From a virus (Duplodnaviria; Heunggongvirae; Uroviricota; Caudoviricetes), in the IMG/VR virus record IMGVR_UViG_3300035184_001394, positions 1-64,000 of that record: 64,000 bases of DNA. The stretch is one strand, 5' to 3'. Of the stretch, positions 28,517 through 41,286 are shown piece after piece. The translations under genes were made by a program, and so were the position numbers. The notes under the pieces were generated by a model. The model made no database searches and had not been told where the DNA came from. It saw nothing but the letters and a program-made list of their open reading frames with translations. Every line of letters starts with the position of its first letter. The first letter of the stretch is position 1.

Positions 28517-28531
28517 TATTAAAAATATTTA

Positions 28532-28560
28532 TTTACATCGTTATTAAATTGTGTTATAAT
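28532..28560 (+). promoter_or_regulatory. early sigma70-type promoter (P1 of a tandem pair)
   Basis: TTTACA-17-TATAAT. Confidence 0.6.
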
Positions 28561-28594
28561 AAGTTTATCGGTTATTATTTATAACAATTATTTA

Positions 28595-28623
28595 TTGACA
28601 TTTAGTTAAAATATGTTATTATA
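28595..28623 (+). promoter_or_regulatory. early sigma70-type promoter (P2)
   Basis: TTGACA followed by TATTAT at 16 nt (or ATTATA at 17 nt). Confidence 0.55.
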
Positions 28624-28653
28624 GTATTATCAAATAAGTTAAGGAAATAAATT

Positions 28654-29007
28654 ATGAAAGTGCTTGATCTTAAAATAGATAGTTTGTATAAATTTAAATA
28701 TGATGAAAATATATTTAGATATGTTGGTTATAACTTGAGTGGTAATGGTGTCTGGCATCAGTTTACAAAAGATGTCAATCACGATGTTTGTGTTGAATTG
28801 TTAGATTCTGATATTGAGCTTATTGAACCATATTACGATAGTGTTTCAATTGGTACTAGAACTAGTACAAGAGAATATTTCGTATTCAAAAATGATCAGC
28901 AACATATGAAAAAAGAAAATCAAAACTTTGATACTTATATAAGCATGCATAAACCAAAGTGGCCTGTTCCTCGAAAAAATAAAAAAGCTCGATTTGCTAA
29001 AGGTTAA
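28654..29007 (+). CDS. hypothetical protein (117 aa)
   Basis: ORF track; AAGGAA RBS. Confidence 0.55.
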   Translation: MKVLDLKIDSLYKFKYDENIFRYVGYNLSGNGVWHQFTKDVNHDVCVELLDSDIELIEPYYDSVSIGTRTSTREYFVFKNDQQHMKKENQNFDTYISMHKPKWPVPRKNKKARFAKG

Positions 29008-29038
29008 ATTTAAAATTTTACTAACTGGGATTAAATAA

Positions 29039-29212
29039 ATGAATTATAAATTGGGATCTACTGTTCAAACAGGAGAAAAAATAAAAACATCTAAAGGATG
29101 GAGAAAAATCATAAGTGTGTTAGAGACGGGTGTAACTATTAAAGGTGATTTTATCTCATTTGGCGAAACTATATATGGATGGAAAGCAAAGCATATTGCT
29201 TCTAAGAAATAG
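29039..29212 (+). CDS. possible small protein (57 aa)
   Basis: Own translation MNYKLGSTVQTGEKIKTSKGWRKIISVLETGVTIKGDFISFGETIYGWKAKHIASKK. Confidence 0.35.
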   Translation: MNYKLGSTVQTGEKIKTSKGWRKIISVLETGVTIKGDFISFGETIYGWKAKHIASKK

Positions 29213-29226
29213 CATTATCTATTAAT

Positions 29227-29550
29227 TTACCATTTTTCTTTGTCAGCCCAATATGCGCCAGACATTTTACCTTTTTTTATATTCTTAGCGTGTCTGGCTT
29301 TGAATGATTTACGCTTTGCTTTCATATTATCAGATTCACCTTTTTTAGGTTCTCCTGCAGTTGAAGAACCTTGCTCACCAAAGCGTATTGTTTTGATTTT
29401 ATCGCCTTCTTTGGCTACAACAATATGACTCTTGGTTGGATGACTTGGTGTTTTCTTTGGTTTATTATAACCTTTTACTCCAGCCCTTTTTAATCGAGAA
29501 TCATTTTCTTCAGTGATGCATTCTGTAATAAATGCAGCGAAAGTTTTCAT
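29227..29550 (-). CDS. hypothetical basic protein (107 aa)
   Basis: ORF track. Lys/Arg-rich with a C-terminal ..SGAYWADKEKW. A late-type promoter lies upstream. Confidence 0.55.
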   Translation of the reverse strand: MKTFAAFITECITEENDSRLKRAGVKGYNKPKKTPSHPTKSHIVVAKEGDKIKTIRFGEQGSSTAGEPKKGESDNMKAKRKSFKARHAKNIKKGKMSGAYWADKEKW

Positions 29551-29599
29551 TTGTATTCCTTTGTATGTAATATTATATGTTCTTATTATACAGCTATCT

Positions 29600-29607
29600 T
29601 ATTTATA
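29600..29607 (-). promoter_or_regulatory. T4-type late promoter TATAAATA
   Basis: Minus strand TATAAATA about 50 nt upstream of the ATG at 29550. Confidence 0.4.
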
Positions 29608-29687
29608 ATAGTTAATATGTGTGATCTTTAAACACACTCATCGAAGCTTATAAATGTTAATAAAGTCTTATATGATTAAAATAAACG

Positions 29688-29716
29688 TTGACATTAACAT
29701 TCAACTGTTGTATAAT
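29688..29716 (+). promoter_or_regulatory. early sigma70-type promoter (distal of a tandem pair)
   Basis: AAATAAACG-TTGACA-17-TATAAT. Confidence 0.7.
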
Positions 29717-29788
29717 GGATATATAATCGATAATAATACTATATGTTTAAACGATGCAAGTAGGTACTTGATATAATTAAAATAAACG

Positions 29789-29816
29789 TTGACATTTATT
29801 TTTATTGTGTTATAAT
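29789..29816 (+). promoter_or_regulatory. early sigma70-type promoter (proximal)
   Basis: AAATAAACG-TTGACA-16-TATAAT. Confidence 0.7.
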
Positions 29817-29845
29817 AGTCTCGTAAATTTATTAGGAATTAACTC

Positions 29846-30589
29846 ATGCTTATTTTAAGTAAAACCCACGATTATTATGATTGCGTGTCGCAACACGGTA
29901 TCGACAAAACTATTATCTATAAGAGAAAAGATTCTGAAATAGAATTTAACTCAAATGAATTAAATTTTAAAATACATGATGTTTATCGAGATAGATGTTC
30001 TAGTGTATTAACTGTACGTTTATATTATATCTATTTTTGTGGTAAATTTTACCCAGGAGCTAAAATATCATGGTCACGCGACAGTCCATCTTTAGCAAAT
30101 AATTATAATATGAAAGATCCAGTTTATCATTGCTATTCAATGTATGAATACTTAGCTATCGTTGATCTATATAATAATACACATAATTATAATCAGTTTA
30201 AGATCTTAAAAGATTCAAAAAGAACTGCATATGTTAGCGCGCTTCGTTCACATAAAAAAATGAATTCATTCTTTTCTGATGAAGTAAAAATATCGCATGA
30301 TTTGATTCATAAAATTGGAACTCCAGTTGGCATGGTTGGTATGCGCATACCACGCCCTTTAAATAGTAATATTAAGTCAAATAACATTATTTTTTATAAA
30401 GACATAAATCTAAAGCAATTTGAGTTTTTTAGAGTTAAAGACACTTATATTGCGTTTAGTGAAATTGCTCAATTTATATCTGGTGTGCTTGGTGGTAACA
30501 GTCCACCTCTTATTGAAATAGAAGATAAACACAGAATCACTGGTCGCGGTTTTGACAATATGAGTTTTCGAAAACGCAAAGTAATATAA
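29846..30589 (+). CDS. hypothetical protein (247 aa)
   Basis: ORF track; no motif recognised. Confidence 0.55.
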   Translation: MLILSKTHDYYDCVSQHGIDKTIIYKRKDSEIEFNSNELNFKIHDVYRDRCSSVLTVRLYYIYFCGKFYPGAKISWSRDSPSLANNYNMKDPVYHCYSMYEYLAIVDLYNNTHNYNQFKILKDSKRTAYVSALRSHKKMNSFFSDEVKISHDLIHKIGTPVGMVGMRIPRPLNSNIKSNNIIFYKDINLKQFEFFRVKDTYIAFSEIAQFISGVLGGNSPPLIEIEDKHRITGRGFDNMSFRKRKVI

Positions 30590-30597
30590 AAAAATTA

Positions 30598-30626
30598 TTG
30601 ACACCCATTTTTTATTATATTACAGT
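30598..30626 (+). promoter_or_regulatory. early sigma70-type promoter
   Basis: TTGACA-17-TACAGT. Confidence 0.55.
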
Positions 30627-30669
30627 AGTCTTGTAAATTAATAAAACAACTTGAATTAGGAAATACACA

Positions 30670-30921
30670 ATGTTTAATTTTACACTAGGTAACGACAAGT
30701 TTTTAATAGAAATTAATTACATTTCAGGTATACAGAAGCGCTTTTGGGTATACAGTTTTAATATGAGTAATGGAAATGTAAATAATTGCAACTATGTCTC
30801 TGACTTAAACAGACCAATAGATATTTTTGCTGGTGATAAATACGAAAATAAAATAGAATCAATATATCAAATTGGTTATAAACGCGGCCTATTAAGTTTT
30901 TTAAAAGGGAAAAATAAATGA
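30670..30921 (+). CDS. hypothetical protein (83 aa)
   Basis: ORF track; ATGA overlap with the next gene. Confidence 0.45.
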   Translation: MFNFTLGNDKFLIEINYISGIQKRFWVYSFNMSNGNVNNCNYVSDLNRPIDIFAGDKYENKIESIYQIGYKRGLLSFLKGKNK

Positions 30922-31403
30922 GTAATGATTTAGTAAAAGACATTAGTGAAATGCACCAAAAGTTTGGTGTAAACGACTGGTTTGAAAAGAATAAACACGA
31001 CAAAGTATTAATGAAAGAATTCCTTAGATTCCGTATTAACATGTGTCTTGAAGAATTGCTTGAAACAGCAACTGCAGCCAACTTAGTGCTACATACTGAT
31101 ATTCAAGAAGGTCTAGTGTTTAAAGAATCTCAAAACAACGATTTGTGTATTGATTCTGAAGAAGTAGTAGATGGCTTAATCGATCTTTCTGTGTTCGCTA
31201 TTGGTACATTAGACGTGTTTAATGCTGATGCAAACAAAGCTTGGGATGCTGTATACGATGCGAATATGGTTAAAGAATCTGGTGTTAAACCTGGTCGCCC
31301 AAATAAATGGGGTCTTCCTGATATGATAAAACCGAAAATGGAAACACATGGCTACGACTGGGTAGCTCCATCTCATGAAGGTAATCACGGAGATTTTAAA
31401 TGA
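30918..31403 (+). CDS. MazG / PRA-PH-like all-alpha NTP pyrophosphohydrolase
   Basis: FRINMCLEELLE (EExxE-type metal site), VVDGLIDLSVFAIGT (second acidic helix), then ..VYDANMVK...GKP..KP..W..P tail as in MazG-like phage enzymes. Confidence 0.6.
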   Translation: MSNDLVKDISEMHQKFGVNDWFEKNKHDKVLMKEFLRFRINMCLEELLETATAANLVLHTDIQEGLVFKESQNNDLCIDSEEVVDGLIDLSVFAIGTLDVFNADANKAWDAVYDANMVKESGVKPGRPNKWGLPDMIKPKMETHGYDWVAPSHEGNHGDFK

Positions 31404-31600
31404 GAAAGGAAATTATAGAAACACTAAAATCTCATGCTATTGGCCATATCAATAAACATAAGATGAACGTCGAGATTTACCTCGCAAACCCAGTTGGTAT
31501 CGGTGAGCATTCAGACGTCATTGAAACTATTGAACTAGAACTTAAACAAATTGCAGAGTATCAAGATCAACTCGAAGTTTTAGAAAAATACTTTAGTTAA
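31400..31600 (+). CDS. hypothetical protein (66 aa)
   Basis: ORF track; ATGA overlap with the upstream gene. Confidence 0.45.
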   Translation: MRKEIIETLKSHAIGHINKHKMNVEIYLANPVGIGEHSDVIETIELELKQIAEYQDQLEVLEKYFS

Positions 31601-31609
31601 AAATAACAA

Positions 31610-31638
31610 TTGACATTCCTTTTATTTTAATATATAAT
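31610..31638 (+). promoter_or_regulatory. early sigma70-type promoter
   Basis: TTGACA-17-TATAAT. Confidence 0.75.
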
Positions 31639-31681
31639 AGTTGTATATTAATTTAGAAGGTTTTCTAGTACAGGAGTTTAA

Positions 31682-32101
31682 ATGAAATACGATAACGGTA
31701 AAACAGATTTATCATTGATACCACCAGAAGTCTTAGTTGACATTGCGTGTGTATTAGGCTTTGGTGCAAAGAAATATGGTAGGGATAATCACCGCTTTGA
31801 TGCTGGAGAAACTGAATGGAGTAGAGTATATGCTTCAGCCCAACGCCACTTGCATGATTTTTGGTCAGGTGAAGATTTTGACCCAGAATCTGGTCAGAAA
31901 CATATAACACACGCAATTACCCAATTGATTATTCTTGCAACTGCAATTAACGATGGCCATACGAATATGGATGACCGGTTTTTTACAAAATTAAAACAGT
32001 TAAGCACTACAGAAAAACCAAAACCCGACAGTCTCTTAGATACTAAAGCAACTAAACATGCACCCTATGTATATTTAAAGTCTCGGGAGATTATTGAATA
32101 A
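31682..32101 (+). CDS. dNTP diphosphohydrolase-like protein (KYDxGK...FGAxKYG family, MazZ-related N-terminal domain)
   Basis: MKYDNGKTDLSLIPPEVLVDIACVLGFGAKKYGRDN...SAQRHLHDFWSGEDFDPESGQKHITHAI matches the pattern I associate with the dATP/dGTP diphosphohydrolase N-terminal domain family. Confidence 0.5.
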   Translation: MKYDNGKTDLSLIPPEVLVDIACVLGFGAKKYGRDNHRFDAGETEWSRVYASAQRHLHDFWSGEDFDPESGQKHITHAITQLIILATAINDGHTNMDDRFFTKLKQLSTTEKPKPDSLLDTKATKHAPYVYLKSREIIE

Positions 32102-32850
32102 TGATAGTTGAAGATATACGTAAATACTTTAAAGAAGAACTTGCTGCAGAACGTTTCACTATTGATAAAACTGGTGCTAAAACGATCGAGTTGTTAGGTG
32201 CTAGCTTTATTGCTGATGAACCTGCTATTTTTGGTATTCCTAATCAAGAATATATTGATGCTGAAATAAAATGGTACAATAGTTGTTCTACTAATATTAA
32301 TACATTAGAAAAAATTTATGGTAAGAAACCAGCTGCGTGGGCTTACTCAGCAAATTCTTATGGCGAAATCAATTCGAATTATGGTCATCTTTTGTTTGAA
32401 CCAAAGTACTATAATCAATTTGAAAATGCTGTAAAAGAACTAATCAATAACCCTGATAGTAGACGTGCTCAACTAACATACACTAGACCTTCTGTATGGG
32501 TTGATTTTAACGAAAGCGGCAAAAACGATTTCATATGTACTTTAGGTCAACTGTTTTATATACGTGATAATAAATTACATATGGTAAGCATGATGCGAAG
32601 CAACGACTCTTGGGCTGGTTATCGCAATGATTATGCTTGGGCTAAATATCTTATGGAACTCGCTGTTAACGAATACAATGTTGGATGTGAAAATACTCCT
32701 ATTGCTATTGGTAATCTGTATTGGCAAGTAGCCAATATGCACATATATGAAAGAAATTTCTATTTAGTTGATTATTATTCAAAAACAGGTAAATTTCATA
32801 TTTCTAAACCCGACTATGCTGCAAAATATCCGAATAGTCAATATAATTAA
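32101..32850 (+). CDS. 42: deoxycytidylate 5-hydroxymethyltransferase (T4 gp42-like)
   Basis: Collinear with T4 gp42 as recalled: FTIDKTGAKTIELLGASFIADEP.IFG, GEINSNYG, NPDSRR, NDFICT (catalytic Cys), MRSNDSWAGYRNDYAW (Asp of RNDYAW = cytosine-specifying residue), HIYERNFYLVD, GKFHISKPDY. Confidence 0.85.
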   Translation: MIVEDIRKYFKEELAAERFTIDKTGAKTIELLGASFIADEPAIFGIPNQEYIDAEIKWYNSCSTNINTLEKIYGKKPAAWAYSANSYGEINSNYGHLLFEPKYYNQFENAVKELINNPDSRRAQLTYTRPSVWVDFNESGKNDFICTLGQLFYIRDNKLHMVSMMRSNDSWAGYRNDYAWAKYLMELAVNEYNVGCENTPIAIGNLYWQVANMHIYERNFYLVDYYSKTGKFHISKPDYAAKYPNSQYN

Positions 32851-32853
32851 CTG

Positions 32854-32882
32854 TTGACATTTCGGTTTAAGCTTGTTATAAT
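32854..32882 (+). promoter_or_regulatory. early sigma70-type promoter with conserved leader
   Basis: TTGACA-17-TATAAT then AGTTACATAAATTTATTAGG. Confidence 0.75.
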
Positions 32883-32911
32883 AGTTACATAAATTTATTA
32901 GGAAATATATT

Positions 32912-33364
32912 ATGTGTGATAAGTGGCATAAACGTTACCTTCATTTAGCAAAGAATATTGCTTCATGGAGCAGAGATCCTTCTCGTAAAATCGGAGCAGT
33001 TGCTATTGGTTCTAAAGGTCAGGTATTAGCTCAAGGTTTCAATGGATTCCCTCGGGGTATTCGAGATACTGAAGAAAGATATAATGACCGCGAGACTAAG
33101 TATAAATATGTCGTACACGCTGAAATGAACTGTATATATAACGCTACGTATAGTGGTGTTAGCCTTGATGGTAGTTCATTATATGTGCATGGTTTACCAG
33201 TTTGTTCTGAATGCGCTAAAGGTATTATTCAAACTGGAATCAAAGAAGTATTTTGGTCTGCTGATGAAGAAATACCAGTAAGATGGTGTGATGCTTATAA
33301 GATAACAAAGAATATGCTTCTAGAAGCTGGCATAAATATAACATATGTAAACATAGGAGAATAA
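32912..33364 (+). CDS. cd: dCMP deaminase
   Basis: Cytidine/deoxycytidylate deaminase zinc motifs VHAEMNCI and PCSECAKGI. Confidence 0.85.
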   Translation: MCDKWHKRYLHLAKNIASWSRDPSRKIGAVAIGSKGQVLAQGFNGFPRGIRDTEERYNDRETKYKYVVHAEMNCIYNATYSGVSLDGSSLYVHGLPVCSECAKGIIQTGIKEVFWSADEEIPVRWCDAYKITKNMLLEAGINITYVNIGE

Positions 33365-33367
33365 AAA

Positions 33368-33730
33368 TTGGAAGATGATTTATTACCAACAATAAGTGCG
33401 GTTATATTACTACCAGAGAGTAGATCTGACGTAACAAGATATGTGTTGATTGGAGATTTTAAATATGCTGGATTTGAAGTTCCAAGTGGGTTTGTGACTG
33501 ACGGTTTGACTATACCAAGGATATTTTGGAGCATACTACCACCCATTCACAGATACTTTCCTGCAGCCATAATTCATGATTATCTATTAACACAAGTATC
33601 TCGCGTAGAAGCTGACAGAGAGTTTAAGATTGTACTGAAAAAGCTAAATATATCTAGAGTGCGTAGATTTTTAATGGCTGCCGCAGTAAGATTATATTCA
33701 ACAATACTAAAAATATTAAATAAAAGTTGA
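33368..33730 (+). CDS. DUF1353-family protein (TTG start)
   Basis: FEVPSGFVTDGLTIPRIFW...AAIIHDYL...EADREF...R..MAAAVRLY fits the DUF1353 pattern. Confidence 0.6.
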   Translation: MEDDLLPTISAVILLPESRSDVTRYVLIGDFKYAGFEVPSGFVTDGLTIPRIFWSILPPIHRYFPAAIIHDYLLTQVSRVEADREFKIVLKKLNISRVRRFLMAAAVRLYSTILKILNKS

Positions 33731-33755
33731 CATTATAATCAACTTGTGATATAGT
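33727..33755 (+). promoter_or_regulatory. early sigma70-type promoter of the six-gene operon
   Basis: TTGACA-17-TATAGT. Followed by an atypical ~80-nt GC-containing leader rather than the standard leader. Confidence 0.65.
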
Positions 33756-33837
33756 AGTATCAATTAAACAACTGTGGGCTACTCTGCTTAAACCCAGCCA
33801 ATCCCACATTAATAAACTGAAATAATAGAGGAAGAAA

Positions 33838-35118
33838 ATGTCTAAAATTAATATCGCTATTGCCGGCGTCGGTAATTGCTCATCAGCACTTATTCAAGGT
33901 GTAGAATACTATAAAGAAAATCCAGAAGATACCATAGGTCTTATGTTTGAAGACATCGGTGGTTTTTCTGCTAAAAACTTTAATTTTGTTGTTGGATTTG
34001 ATGTCGATGCCCGTAAAGTTGGCCAACGATTAAATAACTCAATCTATGCTAAACCAAATTGTAACATGGAAGTATATCCTCCAAGTCATAATTTGACTTG
34101 TATAGCATCTAAATCGACAGTATACAGATCGCCAACATTTGATGGTATAGCACCTCACATGCACGATTTACATCCTGATATATCCTTCGTAGAAGATACA
34201 GAAACTCTGGCTATCACGGCTAATGAATACATTCAAATTCTTAAAGATAACAAAGTTGATGTATTACTTAACTATATGCCAGTTGGTTCTGAAACAGCAG
34301 CTCGTTGGCACATTGAAAATGCTATTCGCGCAGGTGTCCATATTGTTAACTGTATGCCAACATATATATCTACTAAAGATGCAATGGAACTTGAGAGACT
34401 TGCTATCGAACATGGCGTAACAGTTGTTGGTTCTGACATGCGTTCTGATTACGGCGCGTCACGTTTATCTGAGGTGTTACAAGGTTCAATTATGGATTCT
34501 GGATTGTTGGTTACTCAACACATCCAAGAAAACAAAGCTTGTGGAACTACTCAAGGTGATATGCGCCGTACTGGTCGTACTGCAAATACTGACTTCTTAA
34601 ACATGGCAACTAAAGATCGTTTAAAAAATAAACATATCTCTAAAGAAAATGTTTTAAATGGTCAAGCTGCTGTACGTGGTAAAGATATTGCTGGTCTTAC
34701 AATGTATGCTGGTCCGTCACTTACAGTTTTCCAAAAACCAGGTGATGAATACATTGGTTCAGATAATAAGATTGCTAATATTGATATGGTATTCTGGGGA
34801 TGGGCTGGGGCTCGCTATGAATTGACTGCTCGTTTATCTGTTCAAGATTCTCCTAATAGTGCTGGAATTGTATTTGATGCAGTTCGTTTTTGCAAAGTTG
34901 CTGCTGAGATGGGTATTGTTGGTTACTTACGTGGTCCATCGGCACACTCTCAAAAGACACCACCAACTCAGCTAAAAACTGCTGATTCAAAATTCGAATG
35001 CGAAGCATTAGCTCGTAGGATTTTAACTGATCTTACTCGTCCGCAACTCGCCGAAAATTACCCACAAGTTGAAGATTTGCTTTATACATTCCAAGCTGAT
35101 ACTTCAGATTACGAATAA
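33838..35118 (+). CDS. myo-inositol-1-phosphate synthase family enzyme (bacterial Ino1 type)
   Basis: INIAIAGVGNCSSALIQGVEYY, FVVGFDVDARKVG, VDVLLNYMPVGSE, TDFLNM, RLKNKHISK, LSVQDSPNSAGIVFDAVRFCKVA and KTPPTQL are collinear with actinobacterial Ino1 as recalled. Confidence 0.8.
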   Translation: MSKINIAIAGVGNCSSALIQGVEYYKENPEDTIGLMFEDIGGFSAKNFNFVVGFDVDARKVGQRLNNSIYAKPNCNMEVYPPSHNLTCIASKSTVYRSPTFDGIAPHMHDLHPDISFVEDTETLAITANEYIQILKDNKVDVLLNYMPVGSETAARWHIENAIRAGVHIVNCMPTYISTKDAMELERLAIEHGVTVVGSDMRSDYGASRLSEVLQGSIMDSGLLVTQHIQENKACGTTQGDMRRTGRTANTDFLNMATKDRLKNKHISKENVLNGQAAVRGKDIAGLTMYAGPSLTVFQKPGDEYIGSDNKIANIDMVFWGWAGARYELTARLSVQDSPNSAGIVFDAVRFCKVAAEMGIVGYLRGPSAHSQKTPPTQLKTADSKFECEALARRILTDLTRPQLAENYPQVEDLLYTFQADTSDYE

Positions 35119-35132
35119 AGGAAAAATATATT

Positions 35133-35510
35133 ATGAATACTTTTGATATTGATGGTGTGATTTATATGGGTAAAGACCATGACGGCGTTTACCCTGGGCC
35201 GAACGACTTGATTATTACTGGTCGTTCTATTGAAGAAAAACCAGAAACTATTAGGATGCTGCAGCAGAAAGGGATTAATAATAAAGTTTATTTTAATCCC
35301 TTACCATTTAAACAAAAGACCAGAGAAAGTTCTGGTCACCATAAAGCAGACATCATTTCAGCTCTTATTACATTAGGTTGTCCTATAGATATCCACTTTG
35401 AAGATGATCCAATACAAGCTGATATAATCAAAAAGGTTACATCAATTCACGTTGTATTATTAAACCACAACTTAACTGAAAAGGAGAATATGCGCCATGG
35501 GGGATACTGA
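35133..35510 (+). CDS. HAD-superfamily phosphatase (small, capless)
   Basis: Motif I FDIDGV, motif II IITGRS and motif IV HFEDDP. Confidence 0.55.
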   Translation: MNTFDIDGVIYMGKDHDGVYPGPNDLIITGRSIEEKPETIRMLQQKGINNKVYFNPLPFKQKTRESSGHHKADIISALITLGCPIDIHFEDDPIQADIIKKVTSIHVVLLNHNLTEKENMRHGGY

Positions 35511-36240
35511 AATGTATAAAGGCTATAAAATTAGAACAGGCCCGGGTATTGATCGTGATATGATTCGCGATTCACTAAAACATTATAGCCACTTCTCACT
35601 TGATAAAAAATCAGTAGTGCTTGATCTTGGTTCTAATATTGGTGGATTTACTAGGATGGCAAACGAAAAAGAAGTTAAACAATACATAGCAGTAGAACCA
35701 GATCCAGAAAATATGGAATTAACAACTGTTAATTCCATAGACGGAAGTAATAACTTATATTTGTTGGGTGTAGCCTCTATTTCTGAATCAGAACATTTAA
35801 CGTTTTTTCAATCTAATGCTGTAAGATCAAAATGCTCTGGAACTATTAATAGTAAAAGTCAAACAGCTACTAGAAAGAATGGCACTGCATACGATGTTGT
35901 TAATTATAATGTGTATGAACTGTTGGAAAAATATAAACCTACTCATGTCAAATGTGATATAGAAGGAGCAGAAATTGATTGGTTAGCTGATTGCGAAGGT
36001 ATATTTCCAGACTATATTCAGGAGTTGGCGTTTGAGTTGCATGGTAGAGCTGGTATAGTAGAACTCGAGCGATATTACGATAATATAATTGAACATTTTG
36101 AAATAGTTAGTTTTGTTCCATCTGTTGGGTTTAAAGGCAGTTTTAATAAAAAAGACGCTGTACTGTATGAAAAAGTTGGATATACAACAGAAGGTACTTT
36201 GTGGAGCATAGACTTATTCTTGCGTAGAAGAGTAAAATAA
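35497..36240 (+). CDS. FkbM-family SAM-dependent methyltransferase
   Basis: VVLDLGSNIGGFTRMA (motif I), AVEPDPENMELT and HVKCDIEGAEIDWL (FkbM signature iDvEG.E). An alternative start exists at 35512. Confidence 0.7.
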   Translation: MGDTEMYKGYKIRTGPGIDRDMIRDSLKHYSHFSLDKKSVVLDLGSNIGGFTRMANEKEVKQYIAVEPDPENMELTTVNSIDGSNNLYLLGVASISESEHLTFFQSNAVRSKCSGTINSKSQTATRKNGTAYDVVNYNVYELLEKYKPTHVKCDIEGAEIDWLADCEGIFPDYIQELAFELHGRAGIVELERYYDNIIEHFEIVSFVPSVGFKGSFNKKDAVLYEKVGYTTEGTLWSIDLFLRRRVK

Positions 36241-37406
36241 TGATTGATGGTACACATAAATCATACGAAGTACCTAAAGGATTTAAATCTGCTGACTCAA
36301 ATTATCCACTGGATAAATATTTTGATTTGTGCGACGTTGAGAAATTTCTTGACTTTAAATATTTTGTATGCGAAGTTAATAAGAGATCGGAATGGCAAAG
36401 GGGTCTTATTACAACATACGATTATAAAGAGTATGCTCTTAATCCAAATACAGAATACTTTCATCCGATGATTACATACGACGATCGTATGGTTTATATC
36501 GCTGAAAATATAGTAGGATTATCAAGCGACACTTTATCTCTACACAATAAGATTGGTAACACAATTATATCTCACTTCTATGGAGCTAGAGGTATTCACC
36601 AGATTGCCACTCGTAATAATGACGTTAAAACTGCTCATGTTGATTTTGAAAACTATTTTACTACTGACGAGCGCTCTCGTATACGAGAAAATTTAAAACT
36701 TTCAAAAATTGCTGGTTTGCCTATATATGGTTCTACTGAATTGCGTACTTCTCTCTGGGGTGCTGCAAACAAATATCAACAAAGCCGTTTTAATGTTACA
36801 ACCGAAGAAGAAAGAAAGCACCCTGGAAATATTATGGATTGGGTAGCTGGTTTATGCGAAGATGGAACTTTTGATCGTTTAATTAGTTGTAATTCTATTA
36901 AAGAAGCATTTAATGAACTCACTTCTAACGCTGGTATTGGAAGTTATTATGGATTCCATTGTGCTACTTCAAATTCAGTAAACCCTGAGTTGAACTGGAC
37001 TAATGATGATAACTTCGTTAAACCTGGACCTGGTGCTCAATATACTTTAAAGTTGATGTTTCCAAACGCAACAAATAAGTTAATTAACAGTGGCGATCTT
37101 GTTATATGGTTTAGACACAATCAAAAGTTCTTTGGTTTTGGCGATATTGAAATCCATGAATCTGCTCATAATATTTTAAATTTTGAAGGCAAAAAGATTC
37201 TTGAAAAAGATCAAACCGAAATGATGACTTATGGTTCTGAGGTTGCTATGTGCCAATATGGTATTTTTTGTAAGTTGCGCGAAGATAAAAAAGCTTGCGA
37301 TAGACGTAAAGTTGCCCGTATAGGAGATAGAAACATTGAAAAAATGCTAAATATGGCTGAGCAAGAACAAATTTCTCAAGCAGCATTTCAACAATTTTTT
37401 ACATGA
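36240..37406 (+). CDS. alpha-glutamyl/putrescinyl-thymine pyrophosphorylase (aGPT-Pplase)-like putative DNA base hypermodification protein
   Basis: NAGIGSYYGFHCATSNSVNPELNWTNDDNFVKPGPGAQYTL resembles the G.G.F.AYE...DL......D...W...GPGAQRG block I recall from this family. Based on memory only, so tentative. Confidence 0.4.
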   Translation: MIDGTHKSYEVPKGFKSADSNYPLDKYFDLCDVEKFLDFKYFVCEVNKRSEWQRGLITTYDYKEYALNPNTEYFHPMITYDDRMVYIAENIVGLSSDTLSLHNKIGNTIISHFYGARGIHQIATRNNDVKTAHVDFENYFTTDERSRIRENLKLSKIAGLPIYGSTELRTSLWGAANKYQQSRFNVTTEEERKHPGNIMDWVAGLCEDGTFDRLISCNSIKEAFNELTSNAGIGSYYGFHCATSNSVNPELNWTNDDNFVKPGPGAQYTLKLMFPNATNKLINSGDLVIWFRHNQKFFGFGDIEIHESAHNILNFEGKKILEKDQTEMMTYGSEVAMCQYGIFCKLREDKKACDRRKVARIGDRNIEKMLNMAEQEQISQAAFQQFFT

Positions 37407-37413
37407 GGTAAAT

Positions 37414-38517
37414 ATGAAAACAATTATAGCAGCACCATTCATCCCTATGTCGTTTCAGATAACGAGTCATAGGGCAGCACAAGGAATTATATATGCTGAT
37501 TTGCTTAAACACTATCACACAGACGATATTTCAGTAAGCTTATCTAGACCAAGCGTACAAGGTCCCGAAGCTAAAGAATCAAACAAAACAGAAGATTTTA
37601 ACGAATATGATAGATTATATATCTATCATGGTAATGATCGTAAAGCAGACGCTGGTGATCTAAACTTTTTTGGTGGAACTCGAAATTTCCCTCATGCTTA
37701 CAATATTAGAAATATTTCTAAATTTAAAGGTGAAGTTTATTCTATTGGATATGATATGCCTGATTATGCTACTATGTTAGAGCACAAGATTACTGGCCAT
37801 GAAAAGCGAGATGGTACACTTGACACAATGGTTCCTGAATTTCTCGAAGTTGATATTGATAATTTAAGAGCAATGCAAGAAAGAGCGATCACAATTATAC
37901 CACAACATCCTAGTTGGAGCGGTTTAGTGATCGGTGATAGTCATGCTATTTGTATGTATCGTGAAGGATATAATGTTAATTCAGTTCCGTTTAAAACTTT
38001 GTATGGAGCCTTAGAATTAGGCTTAAAAAGTTTCATAAATAAAAATGACATTAAGGATATTGAATGTTACTTTGGTAACATTGATATACGTCATCACATT
38101 TGTAGACAGGACGATCATAAACAAGCTATTAGAGATCTTGTTGATCGTTATGTCGACCAAGTCGATTCTTTGGATATGGAAAGTAAAGTGATCTATGAAC
38201 TATTACCTATCGAAAACGAACGCAGAAATCTTCCAAAAAGCGGATGGTATCTTGGTGAGAAATTTCATGGTACGTGGGCTGAGCGTAACGCAGCAAGACT
38301 TTACTTTAAAGAATACTCAATGAAAAGAGTTCAAGGAACGAGTGTTGAATTTCGTGAATGGCTCACTCCATCGTATTATAATGAATTAGGTGAACTTGAT
38401 TTTAAAGCTATGGAGCGACCAAAATCAGTTCATTTATCTCGTGAATACTATCCTCATTGGCAAGGACTTGAATACAATAAAATTAATAAAACAACAATTG
38501 AGGATTTTTTTCAATGA
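37414..38517 (+). CDS. two-domain protein: unknown N-terminal domain + SGNH/GDSL-hydrolase-like C-terminal domain
   Basis: GLVIGDSHAICMY (GDS block I) at residue ~170 and a later GNIDIRHH. The N-terminal 170 aa have no recognised motif. Confidence 0.35.
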   Translation: MKTIIAAPFIPMSFQITSHRAAQGIIYADLLKHYHTDDISVSLSRPSVQGPEAKESNKTEDFNEYDRLYIYHGNDRKADAGDLNFFGGTRNFPHAYNIRNISKFKGEVYSIGYDMPDYATMLEHKITGHEKRDGTLDTMVPEFLEVDIDNLRAMQERAITIIPQHPSWSGLVIGDSHAICMYREGYNVNSVPFKTLYGALELGLKSFINKNDIKDIECYFGNIDIRHHICRQDDHKQAIRDLVDRYVDQVDSLDMESKVIYELLPIENERRNLPKSGWYLGEKFHGTWAERNAARLYFKEYSMKRVQGTSVEFREWLTPSYYNELGELDFKAMERPKSVHLSREYYPHWQGLEYNKINKTTIEDFFQ

Positions 38518-39740
38518 AGCACGCAACGATCATACCACTTATAGGAGGCGAAGCACTAGCATCTACTGAAGTATTTGGAACTAAACCAGAATACATTTTG
38601 TCTTATAAAGGATTTGAAAACAATGAAAAACACTTACTAAACTATTGGAATAACGAAGTACCCTATCATGTACTTGACGATGAGAACAGTATTGCTCCTA
38701 AAAATATTAATGAGAAAGTTGATGTTATATCGAGTGTCTGTCCTTGTGCTGGATTAAGTCAATATCATTCTAAACACGGAGCTGAAAATCAAAATAACCA
38801 ATGGATGGAGAAAACAGCCAAGCATATTCTAGAAACCGTACAACCGAGTGTATTTTGGGGAGAAAATGCTCCTGCTCTTGTTGGTAAGATCGGTGAGTTT
38901 ATGTTAACTAAACTACGTAAAATTGGCCTCGATAATGGATACTCTATGGGTCTATATCTTACTAAGAATATTAAACATGGTATTCCACAATTTCGTAAAC
39001 GCACTTTCTATTTCTTCTGGAAGAAAAGCGAGTTTGGTGATACTGCACCAATGCTTAAATTTATTAACAAAGAACACACAAAAATTGAAGATGTAATTAT
39101 GAGCGCTACTGGTAGTACACAGTTAGAACCAATTAATTCTAAAATTCCAAGCAAAGACGATCCTTACTATAGATATCTTCTTGAAGTAATTCATGGTGGT
39201 ATTACGCATAGAGAATATTTTGAGTTATTAAAAACTAAAAATGTTCGAGGCAACGATGTAGAATCTATTATTATAAATTCAGGTCACGATTATATGATGG
39301 TTGGTGAATGGATGGAAAAAAATGGATACGACAGAGAAGTTCCAAAATGTGAACGAAAATATCATAAGCTAAAAGATGGTGGCAATATAATGCGACGTGG
39401 CACTATTATTCCTAAAGATTATATTGGAGCTTTTGTTGGTCATTATCCGACAGTTCTTACTCATCCATATGAAGATCGTTATATTAATTATCGCGAAGCA
39501 ATGACTATTATGGGATTACCACAAGATTACGAATTGTTAGACCCTAAAAAATCTGCTAATCATATTTGTCAGAATGTTCCATTACAAACTGCTAAAGATA
39601 TGGTGTTAGAAATTAAAGCTGTTTTCGAAGGAAAGCGCCAATTTTCTGATACTGATTTTTTATTACAATCTAACATAAACGAAACATCCAGAACTTTGAA
39701 TATACCAGATAAAGAGCAAAGTTTAGAATCATTTTTCTGA
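38514..39740 (+). CDS. DNA (cytosine-5) methyltransferase-fold enzyme
   Basis: Motif I-like IIPLIGGE, motif IV SSVCPCAGLSQ (PC dipeptide), motif VI GENAPAL, motif VIII IPQFRKRTFYF and motif X CQNVPLQTA. ATGA overlap with the upstream gene. Confidence 0.7.
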   Translation: MKHATIIPLIGGEALASTEVFGTKPEYILSYKGFENNEKHLLNYWNNEVPYHVLDDENSIAPKNINEKVDVISSVCPCAGLSQYHSKHGAENQNNQWMEKTAKHILETVQPSVFWGENAPALVGKIGEFMLTKLRKIGLDNGYSMGLYLTKNIKHGIPQFRKRTFYFFWKKSEFGDTAPMLKFINKEHTKIEDVIMSATGSTQLEPINSKIPSKDDPYYRYLLEVIHGGITHREYFELLKTKNVRGNDVESIIINSGHDYMMVGEWMEKNGYDREVPKCERKYHKLKDGGNIMRRGTIIPKDYIGAFVGHYPTVLTHPYEDRYINYREAMTIMGLPQDYELLDPKKSANHICQNVPLQTAKDMVLEIKAVFEGKRQFSDTDFLLQSNINETSRTLNIPDKEQSLESFF

Positions 39741-39748
39741 AATGATTG

Positions 39749-39777
39749 TTGACATTTAAACACAAACATGTTATAAT
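39749..39777 (+). promoter_or_regulatory. early sigma70-type promoter
   Basis: TTGACA-17-TATAAT. Confidence 0.75.
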
Positions 39778-39805: not shown

Positions 39806-40438
39806 ATGAAAAAAGAATTATTAATAGATTTCGAAACATTAGGAATAAATCCTGAAAATTGCGTAGTACTCGACTGCTCGATTATTATCTTCGACAGAGA
39901 GAGATTCACATCTGATAAACCGTACACAGTAGCGGATATTACTGAAACTAAAACATTTAAAATATCTGTTACTGATCAGGTTAACAATTACAATTATGCT
40001 GTTGAAAACAGTGTTATTGAATTTTGGTCTAAACAAGATAAAGAAGTGCGAGCAAAAATTAAGCCGCTACCAACTGATCTTACTGTTAAGGAATTTACTG
40101 ATCAGTTTCTCAACTTAGTTTCTCAGCACAAAATTAGTTATTGGTGGTCTCGTGGAAACACGTTTGATCCACCTATTCTAACTAGAATTTTTGATGATCA
40201 AGGTAAGAAAAATGAATTAAATAAGAATTTAAAATATTGGGCAGTAAGAGATATGCGCACGTTTATTGACGCAAAACTCGATTTCCCGAAAGAAAATGGT
40301 TTTTCTCCTTTTGAAGATGAAGTAAAATGGGGGAAAATATTTAAAAAGCATGATAGCTCTTGGGATGTTTTAGCTGATGTTTTAAGATTACAAGCGATCG
40401 CGAGAGCCGAAGATGATTTGGAACAAGTGAAATTATGA
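39806..40438 (+). CDS. dexA: exonuclease A (DexA, DEDD 3'-5' exonuclease)
   Basis: LLIDFETLG (ExoI), EFWSKQDKEVRAKI, WWSRGNTFDPPIL, YWAVRDMRTFI and HDSSWDVLADV parallel T4 DexA (IIDFETMG, EWWKNQSPEARKNI, GMSFDFPIL, FWNQRDIRT, HDSIHDCAKD). Confidence 0.8.
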   Translation: MKKELLIDFETLGINPENCVVLDCSIIIFDRERFTSDKPYTVADITETKTFKISVTDQVNNYNYAVENSVIEFWSKQDKEVRAKIKPLPTDLTVKEFTDQFLNLVSQHKISYWWSRGNTFDPPILTRIFDDQGKKNELNKNLKYWAVRDMRTFIDAKLDFPKENGFSPFEDEVKWGKIFKKHDSSWDVLADVLRLQAIARAEDDLEQVKL

Positions 40439-41286
40439 AGATAGAAGCGACAATTGAACAATTAAGAGGAGCATCACTTTTTATTGGCGCACCAATGTAT
40501 GGAGGTAATTGCTCTGGTTTATTCACTAAATCTTGTACTGACTTATCTTCAATATGCGCGCTTAACGGAATTAAATTACAATACTATTTCTTATTCAACG
40601 AAAGTTTAGTTCAAAGAGCGCGAAATTACGTTACTGACGAATTTATGCGTTCTGGTTGTACTCATCTAATGTTTATAGACTCAGACATTGGTTTCGATGC
40701 TAGAGATGTTCTACACTTATTAAGCCTTCAGATATTAGATCCCAAGTATGATGTAATAACTGGACCTTATCCTAAGAAAACAATAGCTTGGGAAAAAGTT
40801 AGTAAAGCAGCTAAACTCGGCCATGGCGCAGAAAACCCCTTTGAATTAGAGAAATTTACAGCTGATTTCGTATTCAACCCAGAAGACAATAAAAATAGTT
40901 TTAATCTCGGTGAACCAATTAAAGTTAAAGAAGCAGGAACTGGTTTCATGTTAATTCCTCGCGTAACTCTTGAAAAATATCAAGAAGCTTATCCTGAAAT
41001 GAATTACAAACCAGACCACTTGCGATCTGAATCTTTTGACGGAGCTCGTAATATTACAGCATTTTTTGATTGTATTATAGACCCTAAGACGAAACGTTAT
41101 TTGTCTGAAGATTATTTCTTTTGTCATAAGACTCGTGAAGCTGGGATGAGTGTTTGGATGTGCCCTTGGATGCAAATCAACCATGTTGGTTCTTATATAT
41201 TTAGAGGCAATATGGCTGCGATTACTCAGTTGGGTGTTACTGCAACAGCAGACAATTCTGGTCAAAAGAAGAATTATAAAAAATAA
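40435..41286 (+). CDS. GT-A-fold glycosyltransferase-like protein
   Basis: Rossmann-like N-terminus (LFIGAPMYGG), NESLVQRARN and DxD motif THLMFIDSDIGF. ATGA overlap with dexA. Confidence 0.5.
   Translation: MKIEATIEQLRGASLFIGAPMYGGNCSGLFTKSCTDLSSICALNGIKLQYYFLFNESLVQRARNYVTDEFMRSGCTHLMFIDSDIGFDARDVLHLLSLQILDPKYDVITGPYPKKTIAWEKVSKAAKLGHGAENPFELEKFTADFVFNPEDNKNSFNLGEPIKVKEAGTGFMLIPRVTLEKYQEAYPEMNYKPDHLRSESFDGARNITAFFDCIIDPKTKRYLSEDYFFCHKTREAGMSVWMCPWMQINHVGSYIFRGNMAAITQLGVTATADNSGQKKNYKK

Follow-up and report, generated by a model that had tools for sequence, protein, structure and literature searches.

A candidate cyclitol-based hypermodification module at a hypervariable hydroxymethylcytosine locus of uncultivated T4-like phages

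A putative six-gene operon (O1 to O6) lies next to a gene 42-type dCMP hydroxymethylase in the window, the 64,000-nt stretch of viral DNA analyzed here. The surrounding locus is best explained as a hypervariable "base-decoration" site in a large T4-like clade of uncultivated phages making 5-hydroxymethylcytosine (hmC) DNA. On balance, we lean towards reading the six genes as a pathway that hypermodifies 5-hmC after replication and leaves a cyclitol-derived adduct, the chemistry of which we infer. The module is established by its genes and their linkage, by fusion proteins, by folds and by the signature of the hmC synthase. We found no description of such a module in the literature searched. 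If the reading is true, the genes represent an undescribed and widespread hmC-decorating kit, and the probable inositol-type ring would be new DNA chemistry.

Operon structure and the hydroxymethylcytosine locus

The six plus-strand ORFs follow each other with tight or overlapping junctions, and the coordinates given in the preliminary description proved correct (Table 1). O1 and O2 are spaced by a 14-nt gap, O2 and O3 overlap by 14 nt, O3 and O4 meet at TAATG, O5 starts 7 nt after O4, and O5 and O6 share an ATGA. The promoter-like site reported ahead of the operon is present as well. Promoter-like matches between 31.5 and 42.5 kb totaled 47 against 50.6 +/- 6.8 in shuffles and hence show no excess. 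Five sites match at 11/12 or better (31610, 32854, 33727, 39749 and 41303), and all of them are on the plus strand, intergenic and 5' of a gene block. A single transcription unit is plausible for the six genes, since no plus-strand site of at least 10/12 was found inside 33838-39740 and a 12/12 site lies right after O6.

Table 1. Features of the operon and its neighborhood in the window.
Feature	Position	Strand	Assignment and evidence
MazG/PRA-PH-like	30918-31403	+	NTP pyrophosphohydrolase; phrog_671 3.7e-14
dGTP_diPhyd_N type	31682-32101	+	dATP/dGTP-diphosphohydrolase-like; phrog_801 1.2e-31; abuts gene 42
Gene 42 type	32101-32850	+	dCMP hydroxymethylase; PDB 1b49, E 6.6e-71, full length
cd	32912-33364	+	dCMP deaminase; PF00383, 1.9e-18
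DUF1353 ORF	33368-33730		Between dCMP deaminase and the 33727 promoter-like site
Promoter-like site	33727-33755	+	Sigma-70-type, TTGACA-17-TATAGT, TG extension, 11/12; gap 5' of O1
O1	33838-35118	+	Myo-inositol-phosphate synthase family (cyclitol-phosphate synthase)
O2	35133-35510	+	Small HAD-type phosphatase
O3	35497-36240	+	FkbM-family SAM-dependent methyltransferase
O4	36240-37406	+	Stand-alone HMUDK_hel protein
O5	37414-38517	+	Beta-GT-like N-terminal domain + SGNH-fold C-terminal domain
O6	38514-39740	+	C5-cytosine DNA methyltransferase-fold protein
Next promoter-like site	39749-39777	+	12/12; 9 nt past O6 stop; marks end of six-gene unit
dexA-like	39806-40438	+	3'-5' exonuclease, constant flank; PF16473 1.3e-16; phrog_255 4e-34
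GT-A-like	40435-41286	+	Constant flank; phrog_1574 2.5e-58; weak Glyco_transf_21, E 0.012

The hydroxymethylase and the dCMP deaminase (cd) described upstream are both present, with a DUF1353 ORF additionally intervening before the promoter. In most related loci, cd keeps its synteny with gene 42. In E. coli ThyA numbering, the gene 42 homolog carries D for L143 and D for N177, together with C146 and a retained D169. Judged by published signature criteria for hmC, hmU and 5-hydroxycytosine synthases (PMC13326640), these residues identify the thymidylate-synthase homolog upstream of the operon as the 5-hydroxymethyl-dCMP synthase type and not the hmU or 5-hydroxycytosine type. The retention of D169 indicates that the base in the window is hmC rather than 5-hydroxycytosine. 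Further upstream, PF18909 is recorded on the L004 and L172 orthologs of the dGTP_diPhyd_N-type protein. The MazG/PRA-PH-like protein is a candidate for clearing dCTP, and PRA-PH genes occupy the equivalent place in the relatives L004, L172 and L183. Downstream, the expected dexA was found. The gene previously called a GT-A glycosyltransferase is in place and has a strong phrog_1574 match, but its GT-A likeness is weak. It is always located just 5' of gp45 in this phage clade and is kept in L172, L183, L184 and most O6 loci, with one homolog annotated as "dpG-synthase-like". Genes for a heme oxygenase and a bilin reductase also occur in the window.

The locus order is gene 42 - cd - cassette - O6 - dexA/DUF3310 - GT-A-like - gp45. 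At least five cassettes alternate at this site, O1-O5 being one of them. The others encode a GT4-like 410-aa protein, a UDP-galactopyranose mutase with a 358-aa protein, X397/X328/X307 with O5, or a cupin and a methyltransferase with O5. The mutase cassette holds this position in relatives and also in Aeromonas phage 25. Immediately 5' of O6, where O5 lies in the window, about 33 O6-bearing relatives encode a protein of ~410 aa that we read as a putative GT-B-like glycosyltransferase. The O1-O5 cassette is mobile as a module and occurs in numerous unrelated phage backbones.

O6 is a constant gene of the locus and not specific to the cyclitol route, as it is placed after whatever cassette is present (80 viral loci). 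It is found in more than 500 viral contigs. The C5-methyltransferase fold proposed earlier stands (PF00145, 5e-21), but the proposed pathway membership is weakened by O6 staying whichever cassette is inserted. O6 could possibly, though we consider this the less likely case, be an ordinary orphan C5 DNA methyltransferase acting on residual or sequence-specific plain cytosine for anti-restriction, outside of the cyclitol chemistry. Such a role would fit the independence from the cassette and the intact catalytic motifs IV, VI, VIII and X (conserved PC, ENA, QxRxR and QNV). However, motif I reads IIPLIGG (G to L) and motif II lacks its Glu, both atypical for SAM binding, O6 overlaps O5 at the ATGA, and O6 always adjoins an hmC synthase, the product of which is blocked at C5. 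The constancy of O6 at an hmC locus across so many contigs rather calls for an hmC-related role.

O4, O5 and the proposed chemistry

O5 is the hub of the system. Its C-terminal domain has the SGNH fold recognized earlier, with invariant GDSH, GNxD, His340 and many invariant Arg/His. The N-terminal part, previously labeled an unknown domain, is similar to the N-domain of T4 beta-glucosyltransferase (hhalign probability 75%, E 2e-5, 72 columns) in an alignment that takes in the N70-FFGG loop. The similarity is modest, and the position of the catalytic Asp100 of the T4 enzyme is Asp in only 27 of 38 O5 sequences. We know of no SGNH enzymes acting on DNA. For O4, the sequence rejects the earlier aGPT-Pplase-like assignment, the one family call of the six that proved wrong: no aGPT-Pplase/ADDT match was found and hhalign against a bona fide AADT detected no similarity. 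O4 instead matches HMUDK_hel in Pfam (2.4e-12), the helical domain that 5-hmdU DNA kinases carry. The fold is of the helix-hairpin-helix DNA glycosylase or PUGT-like type, and it is as close to QNG1, whose substrate is a free nucleotide, as to PUGT. The invariant polar residues include Glu334 and Cys338.

We suggest a pathway in which the substrate would be DNA-borne hmC, the adduct presumably a cyclitol, and each catalytic step is conjectural. O1 would convert glucose-6-phosphate to inositol phosphate. O5 might hold hmC-containing DNA via its beta-GT-like N-domain, and its SGNH-type domain could derivatize the 5-CH2OH, most economically by an esterification that generates a leaving group. This step would be a kinase-free counterpart of the 5-hmdU DNA kinase. 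O4 would flip the base, and the cyclitol (phosphate) would replace the leaving group through Cys338/Glu334. The transferase role of O4 is proposed based on the homology to the base-handling helical domain of the kinases and the structural closeness to the Cys-dependent PUGT/AADT. O2 would strip the phosphate and O3 would O-methylate the adduct. In agreement with the preliminary description, the window contains no P-loop kinase, as Walker-A ORFs are only gp41, gp46 and gp44. Neither in the window nor in its flanks did we find a known kind of activating enzyme (kinase, nucleotidyltransferase or NDP-sugar route), which leaves the energy source for cyclitol attachment unexplained.

The likeness of O4 to QNG1, a nucleotide-acting helix-hairpin-helix enzyme, could also mean that O4 and O5 act before replication on free hm-dCMP/hm-dCTP or another nucleotide, so that a precursor bearing the cyclitol, or a nucleotide product other than DNA, would result. 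We consider this unlikely, given that the Pfam match of O4 is to a DNA-kinase helical domain, that the N-domain of O5 looks like the half of beta-GT that binds DNA and that T4 has DNA-level transferases at this site. Bulky C5 adducts are also, as far as is known, post-replicative (PMC13326640).

Linkage of inositol-phosphate synthesis to the module

The enzyme families initially assigned to O1-O3 are confirmed. The Ino1-type cyclitol-phosphate synthase O1 (MIPS) matches PF01658 (Inos-1-P_synth, 8e-8), TIGR03450 (1.6e-58, under the equivalog cut-off) and the structures PDB 1gr0 (E 2.7e-48) and 6k96 (E 2e-27). O1 shares 73% identity with ORF125 of Ralstonia phage RP13, the DNA of which is reported to be heavily modified. 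O2 has no Pfam match, yet it matches phrog_415 (2.9e-6), shows likeness to the phosphatase part of polynucleotide kinase, and HAD motifs I-IV (DxDGV, IITGR, K, FEDD) are kept in 65 homologs. O2-type HAD genes are co-located with MIPS in 83 loci. O3 matches TIGR01444 (2e-15) and PF05050 (1.7e-6).

Of 50,697 deposited phage records, only 19 contain MIPS. After dereplication at 90% identity, 19 O4 clusters were informative: MIPS and O5 are each present in all, HAD in 18 and FkbM in 12, making O3 an optional member. The MIPS/HAD/O4/O5 module varies very little among about 28 O4 lineages. The gene order is not fixed, with O5 leading in most lineages and standing last in the window clade, and such variation in gene order argues for selection rather than shared descent. 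Fusions join FkbM to O4 (P0054, P0071), FkbM to both O4 and O5 (P0384), and O5 to O4 (Aeromonas phages 31/44RR). The proposed co-occurrence with gp42 homologs is seen in part: 24 of the scanned loci and 8/19 informative O4 clusters have an hmC-signature synthase no more than 10 kb away, and its absence from that range in most loci is uninformative rather than negative given the short contigs. By our grouping, the loci with a nearby synthase cover at least five backbones. The synthase is directly adjacent in L174 (TS-O5-MIPS-HAD-FkbM-O4) and in L184, which has the same six genes in the same order at an O5 identity of 51%. The relative L004 has the order 42 - cd - MIPS - HAD - O4 - O5 - O6 - uvsX, and T4 has 42 - beta-gt - uvsX. 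In cultured phages, the MIPS+HAD pair is always in a DNA-hypermodification setting, adjoining a true AADT in Cr30 (PF18724, 1e-52) and inside a FolE-QueC-DpdA-QueE cluster in Moby.

MIPS, a phosphatase and an O-methyltransferase constitute the textbook route to ononitol-type solutes. O1-O3 match this set and might thus be auxiliary metabolic genes making inositol or its methylated form (as a compatible solute or as a precursor of lipids or glycans) beside unrelated DNA enzymes O4-O6, with the heme oxygenase and bilin reductase genes in the window pointing the same way. We regard this as improbable because MIPS and HAD are tied to O4 and O5 across varied backbones and gene orders, FkbM is physically fused to both proteins, the cultured-phage pairs keep to DNA-modification genes, and no adjacent LPS or capsule genes were found in the loci read. 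Very improbable is a counter-defense function, in which the esterase and the glycosylase-like enzyme make or destroy a signaling molecule (host immune nucleotides) with no DNA modification: a stand-alone bacterial O4 homolog, which also speaks against the main reading, lies beside an integrase in an island we read as defense-like (helicase-nuclease, Schlafen/AlbA-domain and NUDIX genes) and a cREC_REC domain gene lies 3' of O4 in 10 loci, but MIPS/HAD, the gene 42 linkage and the beta-GT-like domain would be left unexplained. The initial proposal is partly supported overall. Its core, a (methylated) cyclitol or related group placed on 5-hmC in phage DNA, has strong comparative support from linkage, fusions, the hmC-type synthase, synteny and the putative GT-B-like protein at the O5 position in relatives, with the adduct and its catalysis remaining presumptive.

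Comparison with known systems

Phage C5-methyltransferase and TET pathways create 5-hmC for later glycosylation (PMC8256090), and the window likewise has a C5-methyltransferase-fold gene within a cytosine-hypermodification locus. The hmC of the window stems from gene 42 prior to replication, though, and we saw no TET/JBP gene next to O6. With C5 already occupied, O6 cannot have the role of the TET-pathway methyltransferases. The arabosyl-5-hydroxycytosine clusters of RB69/DLP3 and the galactosyl clusters of Pootjesviridae also combine sugar-precursor genes, including a HAD phosphatase and elsewhere a UDP-galactopyranose mutase, with DNA transferases beside a thymidylate-synthase homolog (PMC13326640). 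These systems differ in using 5-hydroxycytosine (D169N synthases), GT-B enzymes and NDP-sugars (PMC13326640), whereas the window keeps D169 and has no NDP-sugar route.

Similar in layout is the 5-hmC glucosylation of T-even phages, which has an hm-dCMP synthase of the same signature and decoration genes beside gene 42. The L004 module sits between 42 and uvsX like T4 beta-gt, and the O5 N-domain aligns with that of beta-GT. In contrast to beta-GT, O5 has an SGNH-fold domain in place of the UDP-sugar-binding GT-B C-domain and does not conserve the catalytic Asp100, and the donor-supply genes of the window would lead to a cyclitol phosphate instead of an NDP-sugar. Thymidine hypermodification by 5-hmdU DNA kinase and AADT (e.g., PaMx11 gp46/PUGT) acts on hmU instead of hmC. 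The window also lacks the P-loop kinase, O4 has no sequence similarity to AADT, and the nucleophile would come from MIPS/HAD rather than from an amino acid and a PLP enzyme.

Cells couple inositol phosphate first and dephosphorylate it afterwards in mycothiol synthesis (MshA/MshA2), in archaeal and mycobacterial PIP synthase reactions and in di-myo-inositol phosphate synthesis. The sugar or lipid partners are activated there by UDP or CDP, of which nothing is visible here, and the acceptor in our pathway would be a DNA base. The order of MIPS product, transfer and dedicated phosphatase would nevertheless be shared, and this transfer-then-dephosphorylate logic would explain the phosphatase as the obligatory partner of MIPS in the module.

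Genomic setting of the operon

The six genes lie in a divergent T4-like phage of 33% G+C, whose gp43 is 44% identical to cyanomyovirus gp43. Further T4-like core genes in the window are gp41, an intein-bearing uvsX, gp32, gp59, gp46/47, topoisomerase II, gp45 and gp44. The six plus-strand genes (O1 to O6) and their junctions match the coordinates of the preliminary description exactly, and the TTGACA-17-TATAGT site was found where it had been placed. Overall, promoter-like matches do not outnumber those in shuffled sequence. All five matches of 11/12 or better, however, lie on the plus strand, each in a gap ahead of a gene block, and a perfect one stands 9 nt past the O6 stop. Since the best promoter-like sites flank the interval from O1 to O6 and none falls within it, a single transcription unit is plausible from the sequence. 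Four sites carry the perfect 12/12 sigma-70 consensus, all intergenic and before gene blocks, and this arrangement suggests that the region consists of several short early units transcribed by host RNA polymerase.

Several neighboring features are listed in the table. A DUF1353 gene, with the PHROG label "tail assembly chaperone", sits between the dCMP deaminase gene (cd) and the operon promoter and runs at its 3' end into the -35 hexamer of that promoter. The apparent split of uvsX is likely due to insertion of an intein or homing element. The heme oxygenase and bilin reductase genes are auxiliary genes of a type characteristic of marine T4-like phages. Gene 42 is flanked by two NTP-pyrophosphatase-like genes as well as dCMP deaminase.

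Coordinates of features in the window and at compared loci
Record	Position	Strand	Feature
Window	703-2204	-	uvsX, apparently split
Window	703-1245	-	ORF with the UvsX C-terminal domain
Window	1299-2204	-	ORF with RecA domain, then Hint/intein-splicing matches
Window	4437-5689	-	Adjacent heme oxygenase and ferredoxin-dependent bilin reductase genes
Window	6578-7189		ClpP-like gene
Window	31610, 32854, 39749, 41303	+	Perfect sigma-70 consensus sites (TTGACA-17-TATAAT)
Window	32101-32850		Gene 42 homolog
Window	33368-33730		DUF1353 protein, TTG start
Window	33727-33755	+	Operon promoter, TTGACA-17-TATAGT
Window	33838-39740	+	O1 to O6
Window	40435-41286		GT-A-like protein (phrog_1574)
Ralstonia phage RP13 (L001)	91878-93158		Myo-inositol-phosphate synthase (MIPS)
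Caulobacter phage Cr30 (L010)	53130-57655		gp123 and gp122 directly upstream of MIPS gp121; HAD gp118
Stenotrophomonas phage Moby (L011)	28187-33601		MIPS and small HAD between FolE and QueC/DpdA-like/QueE
L059	11032-11454		cREC_REC domain gene directly 3' of O4
L183	4743-8041		X397, X328 and 307-aa protein cassette upstream of O5
Pseudoalteromonas phage vB_Psh_XG4 (L263)	100-6580		Gene 42, four ORFs (131, 559, 414 and 368 aa), O6 homolog

The predicted modified base

The gene 42 product aligns with T4 gp42 over its full length (PDB 1b49, E 6.6e-71). Some gp42-like enzymes make 5-hydroxy-dCMP, and a 2026 paper (PMC13326640) gives the diagnostic positions. A hydroxymethyl-dCMP synthase has the catalytic Cys, an acidic residue at ThyA L143 (hydroxymethyl product) and Asp at N177 (cytosine specificity), and keeps D169 (PMC13326640). 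The window enzyme has the catalytic Cys and Asp at L143, D169 and N177, identical to T4 gp42. The earlier call of a gp42-type dCMP hydroxymethylase thus holds over the full length and at all diagnostic residues, and the predicted enzyme carries the hydroxymethyl-dCMP synthase signature. Two other bases are excluded because of this signature: 5-hydroxycytosine of the RB69 type by the retained D169, and hmU by the Asp at the N177 position. Among 24 gene-42 query matches neighboring O4 loci, 23 have the 5-hydroxymethylcytosine (hmC) signature, the sole exception being an ordinary ThyA in L064 that stands beside an hmC-type copy. At the level of whole contigs, the 80 best loci for one synthase share only that synthase's own contig with the O4 set.

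An interchangeable cassette at a putative decoration locus

The module is abundant, with 629 clusters of O5 at 50% identity and relatives of O6 in more than 500 viral contigs; in 90% clusters, O4 has 289 relatives and O5 849. Linkage was assessed in 80 viral contigs with O4, which were scanned with the window proteins and dereplicated to 28 O4 clusters, 19 of them with enough flank. MIPS and O5 accompany O4 in all 19 informative clusters, HAD in 18, FkbM in 12 and O6 in three, and an hmC synthase lies within 10 kb in eight. MIPS is rare among phages (19 of 50,697 records). The order in most lineages is O5-MIPS-HAD-FkbM-O4, and in the window clade MIPS-HAD-FkbM-O4-O5. A 259-kb contig (L174) reads dNMP kinases-TS-O5-MIPS-HAD-FkbM-O4, TS being the gene 42 homolog, and has two ATP-grasp genes past O4. 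A 158-kb T4-like contig (L184) keeps the window's six genes in unchanged order with an O5 identity of 51%. A DUF6378 gene lies ahead of O5 in 43 loci.

The surroundings of O6 were compared in 80 of the 531 contigs with O6 relatives. The constant frame is gene 42, cd, a variable section, O6, dexA or DUF3310, a GT-A-like gene and gp45. Directly before O6 stands O5 in 28 loci, a protein of about 410 aa in 33, and a 358-aa protein with UDP-galactopyranose mutase in 16. Where O5 precedes O6, its companions are MIPS-HAD-(FkbM)-O4, X397-X328-X307, or a cupin hydroxylase and a methyltransferase. T4 has gene 42, beta-gt and uvsX in succession, whereas the relative L004 has 42-cd-MIPS-HAD-O4-O5-O6-uvsX. 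Given this synteny and the varied gene sets before O6, O1 to O5 are one cassette among five or more that replace each other at the position held by the hmC transferase in T-even phages. O6, which the preliminary description had included in the six-gene operon, is as judged from gene order part of the frame and not of the cassette, being kept beside the hmC synthase whatever cassette intervenes. Hundreds of viral contigs show this pairing of an O6-type gene with an hmC-type synthase, regardless of the intervening cassette (loci L185-L262).

The alternative gene sets have few recognizable relatives. The 410-aa protein is a candidate GT-B/GT4 enzyme, as we read it from an E-x7-E-like motif; its comparison with the C-domain of T4 beta-glucosyltransferase (BGT) was non-significant (hhalign probability 6%), and tblastn against deposited phages found nothing. 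PDB sequence searches returned nothing for this protein, the 358-aa protein of Aeromonas phage 25 or the GT-A-like protein. X397 is a new family with no Pfam match. Neither X397/X328 nor the phage-25 358-aa protein shows a detectable relation to O4, O5, BGT or amino-acid:DNA transferases (AADTs). The GT-A-like gene of the frame overlaps the end of dexA and in the clade is invariably followed by gp45, and phrog_1574 homologs occur in Stenotrophomonas phage DLP6, Sinorhizobium phages phiM7, M19 and N3, Cr30, Pelagibacter phage HTVC027P and Synechococcus phage ACG-2014f.

Cultured phages also carry the locus. Aeromonas phages 25 and 31 both encode gene 42. In phage 25 (L176), UDP-galactopyranose mutase and the 358-aa protein precede O5, and in phage 31 (L002) a sodium:solute symporter (PF00474, 7e-53) precedes an O5-O4 fusion. 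Phage vB_Psh_XG4, cultured and unannotated, has another cassette at the same locus: none of its four ORFs, three of them large, was matched by window or cassette protein queries.

Putative cyclitol supply and methylation

The first three products had been described as an Ino1-type synthase, a HAD phosphatase and an FkbM methyltransferase, and all three assignments stand, the first at family level. O1 exceeds the cut-off of PF01658 (32.8 bits against 27) and matches Ino1 (PDB 1gr0, E 2.7e-48), in an alignment that covers residues 3-382 and takes in the NxDFLNM...SKxISK and DSPNSAG stretches. With NCBIfam TIGR03450, O1 scores 198.6 bits, under the equivalog cut-off of 638 above which an identical substrate and product would be expected. 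The five-membered-cyclitol-phosphate synthase 6k96 is a second, weaker relative (E 2e-27). O1 is therefore assigned as a putative cyclitol-phosphate synthase of the MIPS family. O2 has no Pfam match and no PDB sequence match. It matches phrog_415 (2.9e-6), and its HAD motifs DxDGV (I), IITGR (II), K71 (III) and FEDD (IV) show conservation of 90% or more across 65 homologs. O3 is above the cut-offs of both TIGR01444 (57.5 bits, cut-off 37.7) and PF05050 (28.7 bits, cut-off 22.7).

MIPS and HAD genes recur in other phages. O1 shares 73% protein and about 70% DNA identity with the MIPS of RP13, an unrelated soil phage. This likeness far exceeds that of the rest of the genomes, which points to a recent horizontal transfer of the MIPS-HAD pair. 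The DNA of RP13 has been reported as heavily modified, of the SP-15 type. In Cr30, the pair accompanies the AADT gp123 (PF18724, 1e-52) and gp122, which has a weak TET-associated-glycosyltransferase match. In Moby, it lies within a 7-deazaguanine cluster, which hints at an inositol-bearing deazaguanine derivative. These three settings are consistent with MIPS and HAD forming a portable cyclitol supply unit for different DNA-hypermodification systems.

Candidate DNA-directed enzymes

O4 had been called aGPT-Pplase-like, an assignment that is withdrawn here. The protein matches HMUDK_hel (PF18723), the helical domain of 5-hmdU DNA kinases (2.4e-12, 47.3 bits, cut-off 25), and its homolog P0065 spans positions 48-273 of the 281 in this profile. 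No ADDT/aGPT-Pplase match (PF18724) was found in Pfam at E <= 0.1, and hhalign of the O4 profile against Cr30 gp123, a true AADT, gave a probability of 0.1%, so that AADT identity is rejected at the sequence level. AADTs have a two-helix-bundle, glycosylase-like fold with a catalytic Cys and a Glu close to it. The predicted O4 model is all-alpha, and its Foldseek matches in the PDB are weak and led by the AADT PUGT (E 0.12). The roughly 60 invariant positions of the O4 family include Glu334 and Cys338 on one helix, which are reminiscent of the Cys/Glu pair of AADTs. AADTs work with a P-loop 5-hmdU DNA kinase on hmU DNA, whereas neither the window nor the locus censuses showed such a kinase, and the synthases present are of the hmC type. 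O4 itself has no Walker A motif: it has the helical domain of 5-HMUDK without the P-loop kinase domain. A PDB sequence search with O4 returned nothing, and its exact-protein match is one 2.8-kb JGI contig. A stand-alone homolog (44% identity) is flanked by an HTH gene and an integrase in Crocinitomix algicola (LYPF02000017.1), amid helicase-nuclease, Schlafen/AlbA-domain and NUDIX genes that we take to be defence-like. In ten loci, a gene for a cREC_REC ("cyclic-phosphate processing receiver") domain follows directly 3' of O4.

O5 had been seen as an SGNH-like domain joined to an unknown one; the first part stands and the second is corrected to a BGT-like domain. Residues ~165-350 show an SGNH fold with a block I GDS and the catalytic His. 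Block III is G-N-I-D in place of the canonical GxND, and block V has no Asp three residues before His340 (canonical DxxH). No Pfam match was obtained, Lipase_GDSL included, apart from one homolog at E 0.024, and a PDB sequence search found nothing. The N-terminal domain aligns with the BGT N-domain (hhalign 69-75.5%, E 2-4e-5; O5 25-115 with BGT 23-101), its invariant N84..G87G88 facing BGT N70-FFGG, and the likeness also appears against PF09198 (E 0.047). Of 22 control pairs run likewise, 21 had E >= 0.005, and the exception (E 3.7e-5) was X397 with X328, which we read as distant paralogs. Homology with the DNA/hmC-binding domain of BGT thus has modest standing. BGT (GT63) uses Asp100 as catalytic base, whereas O5 has Asp there in only 27 of 38 sequences, and the C-terminal half of O5 is SGNH-type instead of a UDP-glucose-binding domain.

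Fusions connect these proteins. FkbM is joined to O4 in P0054 and P0071, O5 to O4 in Aeromonas phages 31 and 44RR (795 aa), and all three in P0384 (981 aa). Several metagenomic proteins (P0406, P0427, P0430, P0444, P0458 and P0505) carry X397 at the C-terminal end of O5; in L183, X397 is a separate gene. As O5 is fused or combined with different partners, it is the hub of the system.

For O6, the described C5-methyltransferase fold is borne out by PF00145 (75.9 bits, cut-off 22) and by intact catalytic motifs IV (PC), VI (canonical ENV), VIII (QxRxR) and X (N), conserved in seven orthologs and 24 homologs and located with an M.HhaI guide sequence. SAM-binding motif I is IIPLIGG instead of the canonical FxGxG, and the acidic position of motif II is Tyr/Trp in the alignment. 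A PDB sequence search returned nothing. DNA with hmC would offer no C5-H to a C5-methyltransferase, and yet O6 is the locus's most constant gene.

A proposed route and comparison with known systems

The window holds no kinase, nucleotidyltransferase or NDP-sugar gene, and 5-hmdU DNA kinase is also absent from the locus censuses. A Walker-A scan and Pfam search of the window ORFs gave only gp41, gp46 and gp44, in agreement with the earlier statement that no P-loop hydroxymethylpyrimidine kinase is visible. There are known SGNH acyltransferases that use CoA thioesters to acylate hydroxyls. The scheme that we infer is the simplest one using every conserved part. O5 would dock on hmC DNA by its beta-GT-like domain, and its SGNH domain would esterify the 5-CH2OH group. 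O4 would flip the base, with Cys338 expelling the ester via an exocyclic methylene, a route shown for AADT/PUGT, and would then add a cyclitol-phosphate hydroxyl. O2 would strip the phosphate and O3 might methylate the adduct.

The proposal of an hmC-decoration operon is supported in substance by linkage, fusions and the hmC signature, with corrections to the identity of O4, the hub position of O5 and the constancy of O6. The cassette quite likely decorates hmC in DNA. The chances that the attached group is a cyclitol are about even. Only tentatively do we suggest the reading as a whole, which is that numerous, for the most part uncultivated, T4-like and other phages put a carbocyclic polyol (inositol or methyl-inositol, possibly via phosphate) on hmC without a kinase, through activation or derivatisation by the SGNH/BGT-like O5 and installation by O4, and that O6, kept beside hmC synthases throughout, has been co-opted to work on hmC instead of methylating C.

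Whether restriction, CRISPR and glycosylase defences are effective depends on the hypermodifications of phage DNA, and these have also yielded tools, for example hmC glucosylation in epigenome mapping. O1 to O5 are a probable phage system that hypermodifies hydroxymethylpyrimidines, and they bring new enzyme families and probably a new class of adduct. Literature searches returned no description linking inositol or MIPS with phage DNA modification, DpdA or hmC, and in full text nothing tying HMUDK_hel-only or SGNH proteins to phage DNA modification. If the proposal is true, it would add a new adduct class and two new DNA-modifying enzyme families, and would clearly reveal a hypervariable decoration locus of environmental T4-like phages. 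The cyclitol adduct would be isobaric with hexosyl-hmC and therefore easily missed by mass alone.

In architecture, 5-HMUDK combines a P-loop kinase with HMUDK_hel; the O5-O4 fusions mirror it as a catalytic domain plus HMUDK_hel. To our knowledge, known hmC decorations are all glycosides that GT-A or GT-B enzymes build with NDP-sugars as donors, and known substitutions at the hydroxymethyl carbon all need a DNA base kinase. The O1-O5 module has neither a GT-A/GT-B enzyme nor a DNA base kinase, and brings an inositol-phosphate synthase into DNA metabolism.
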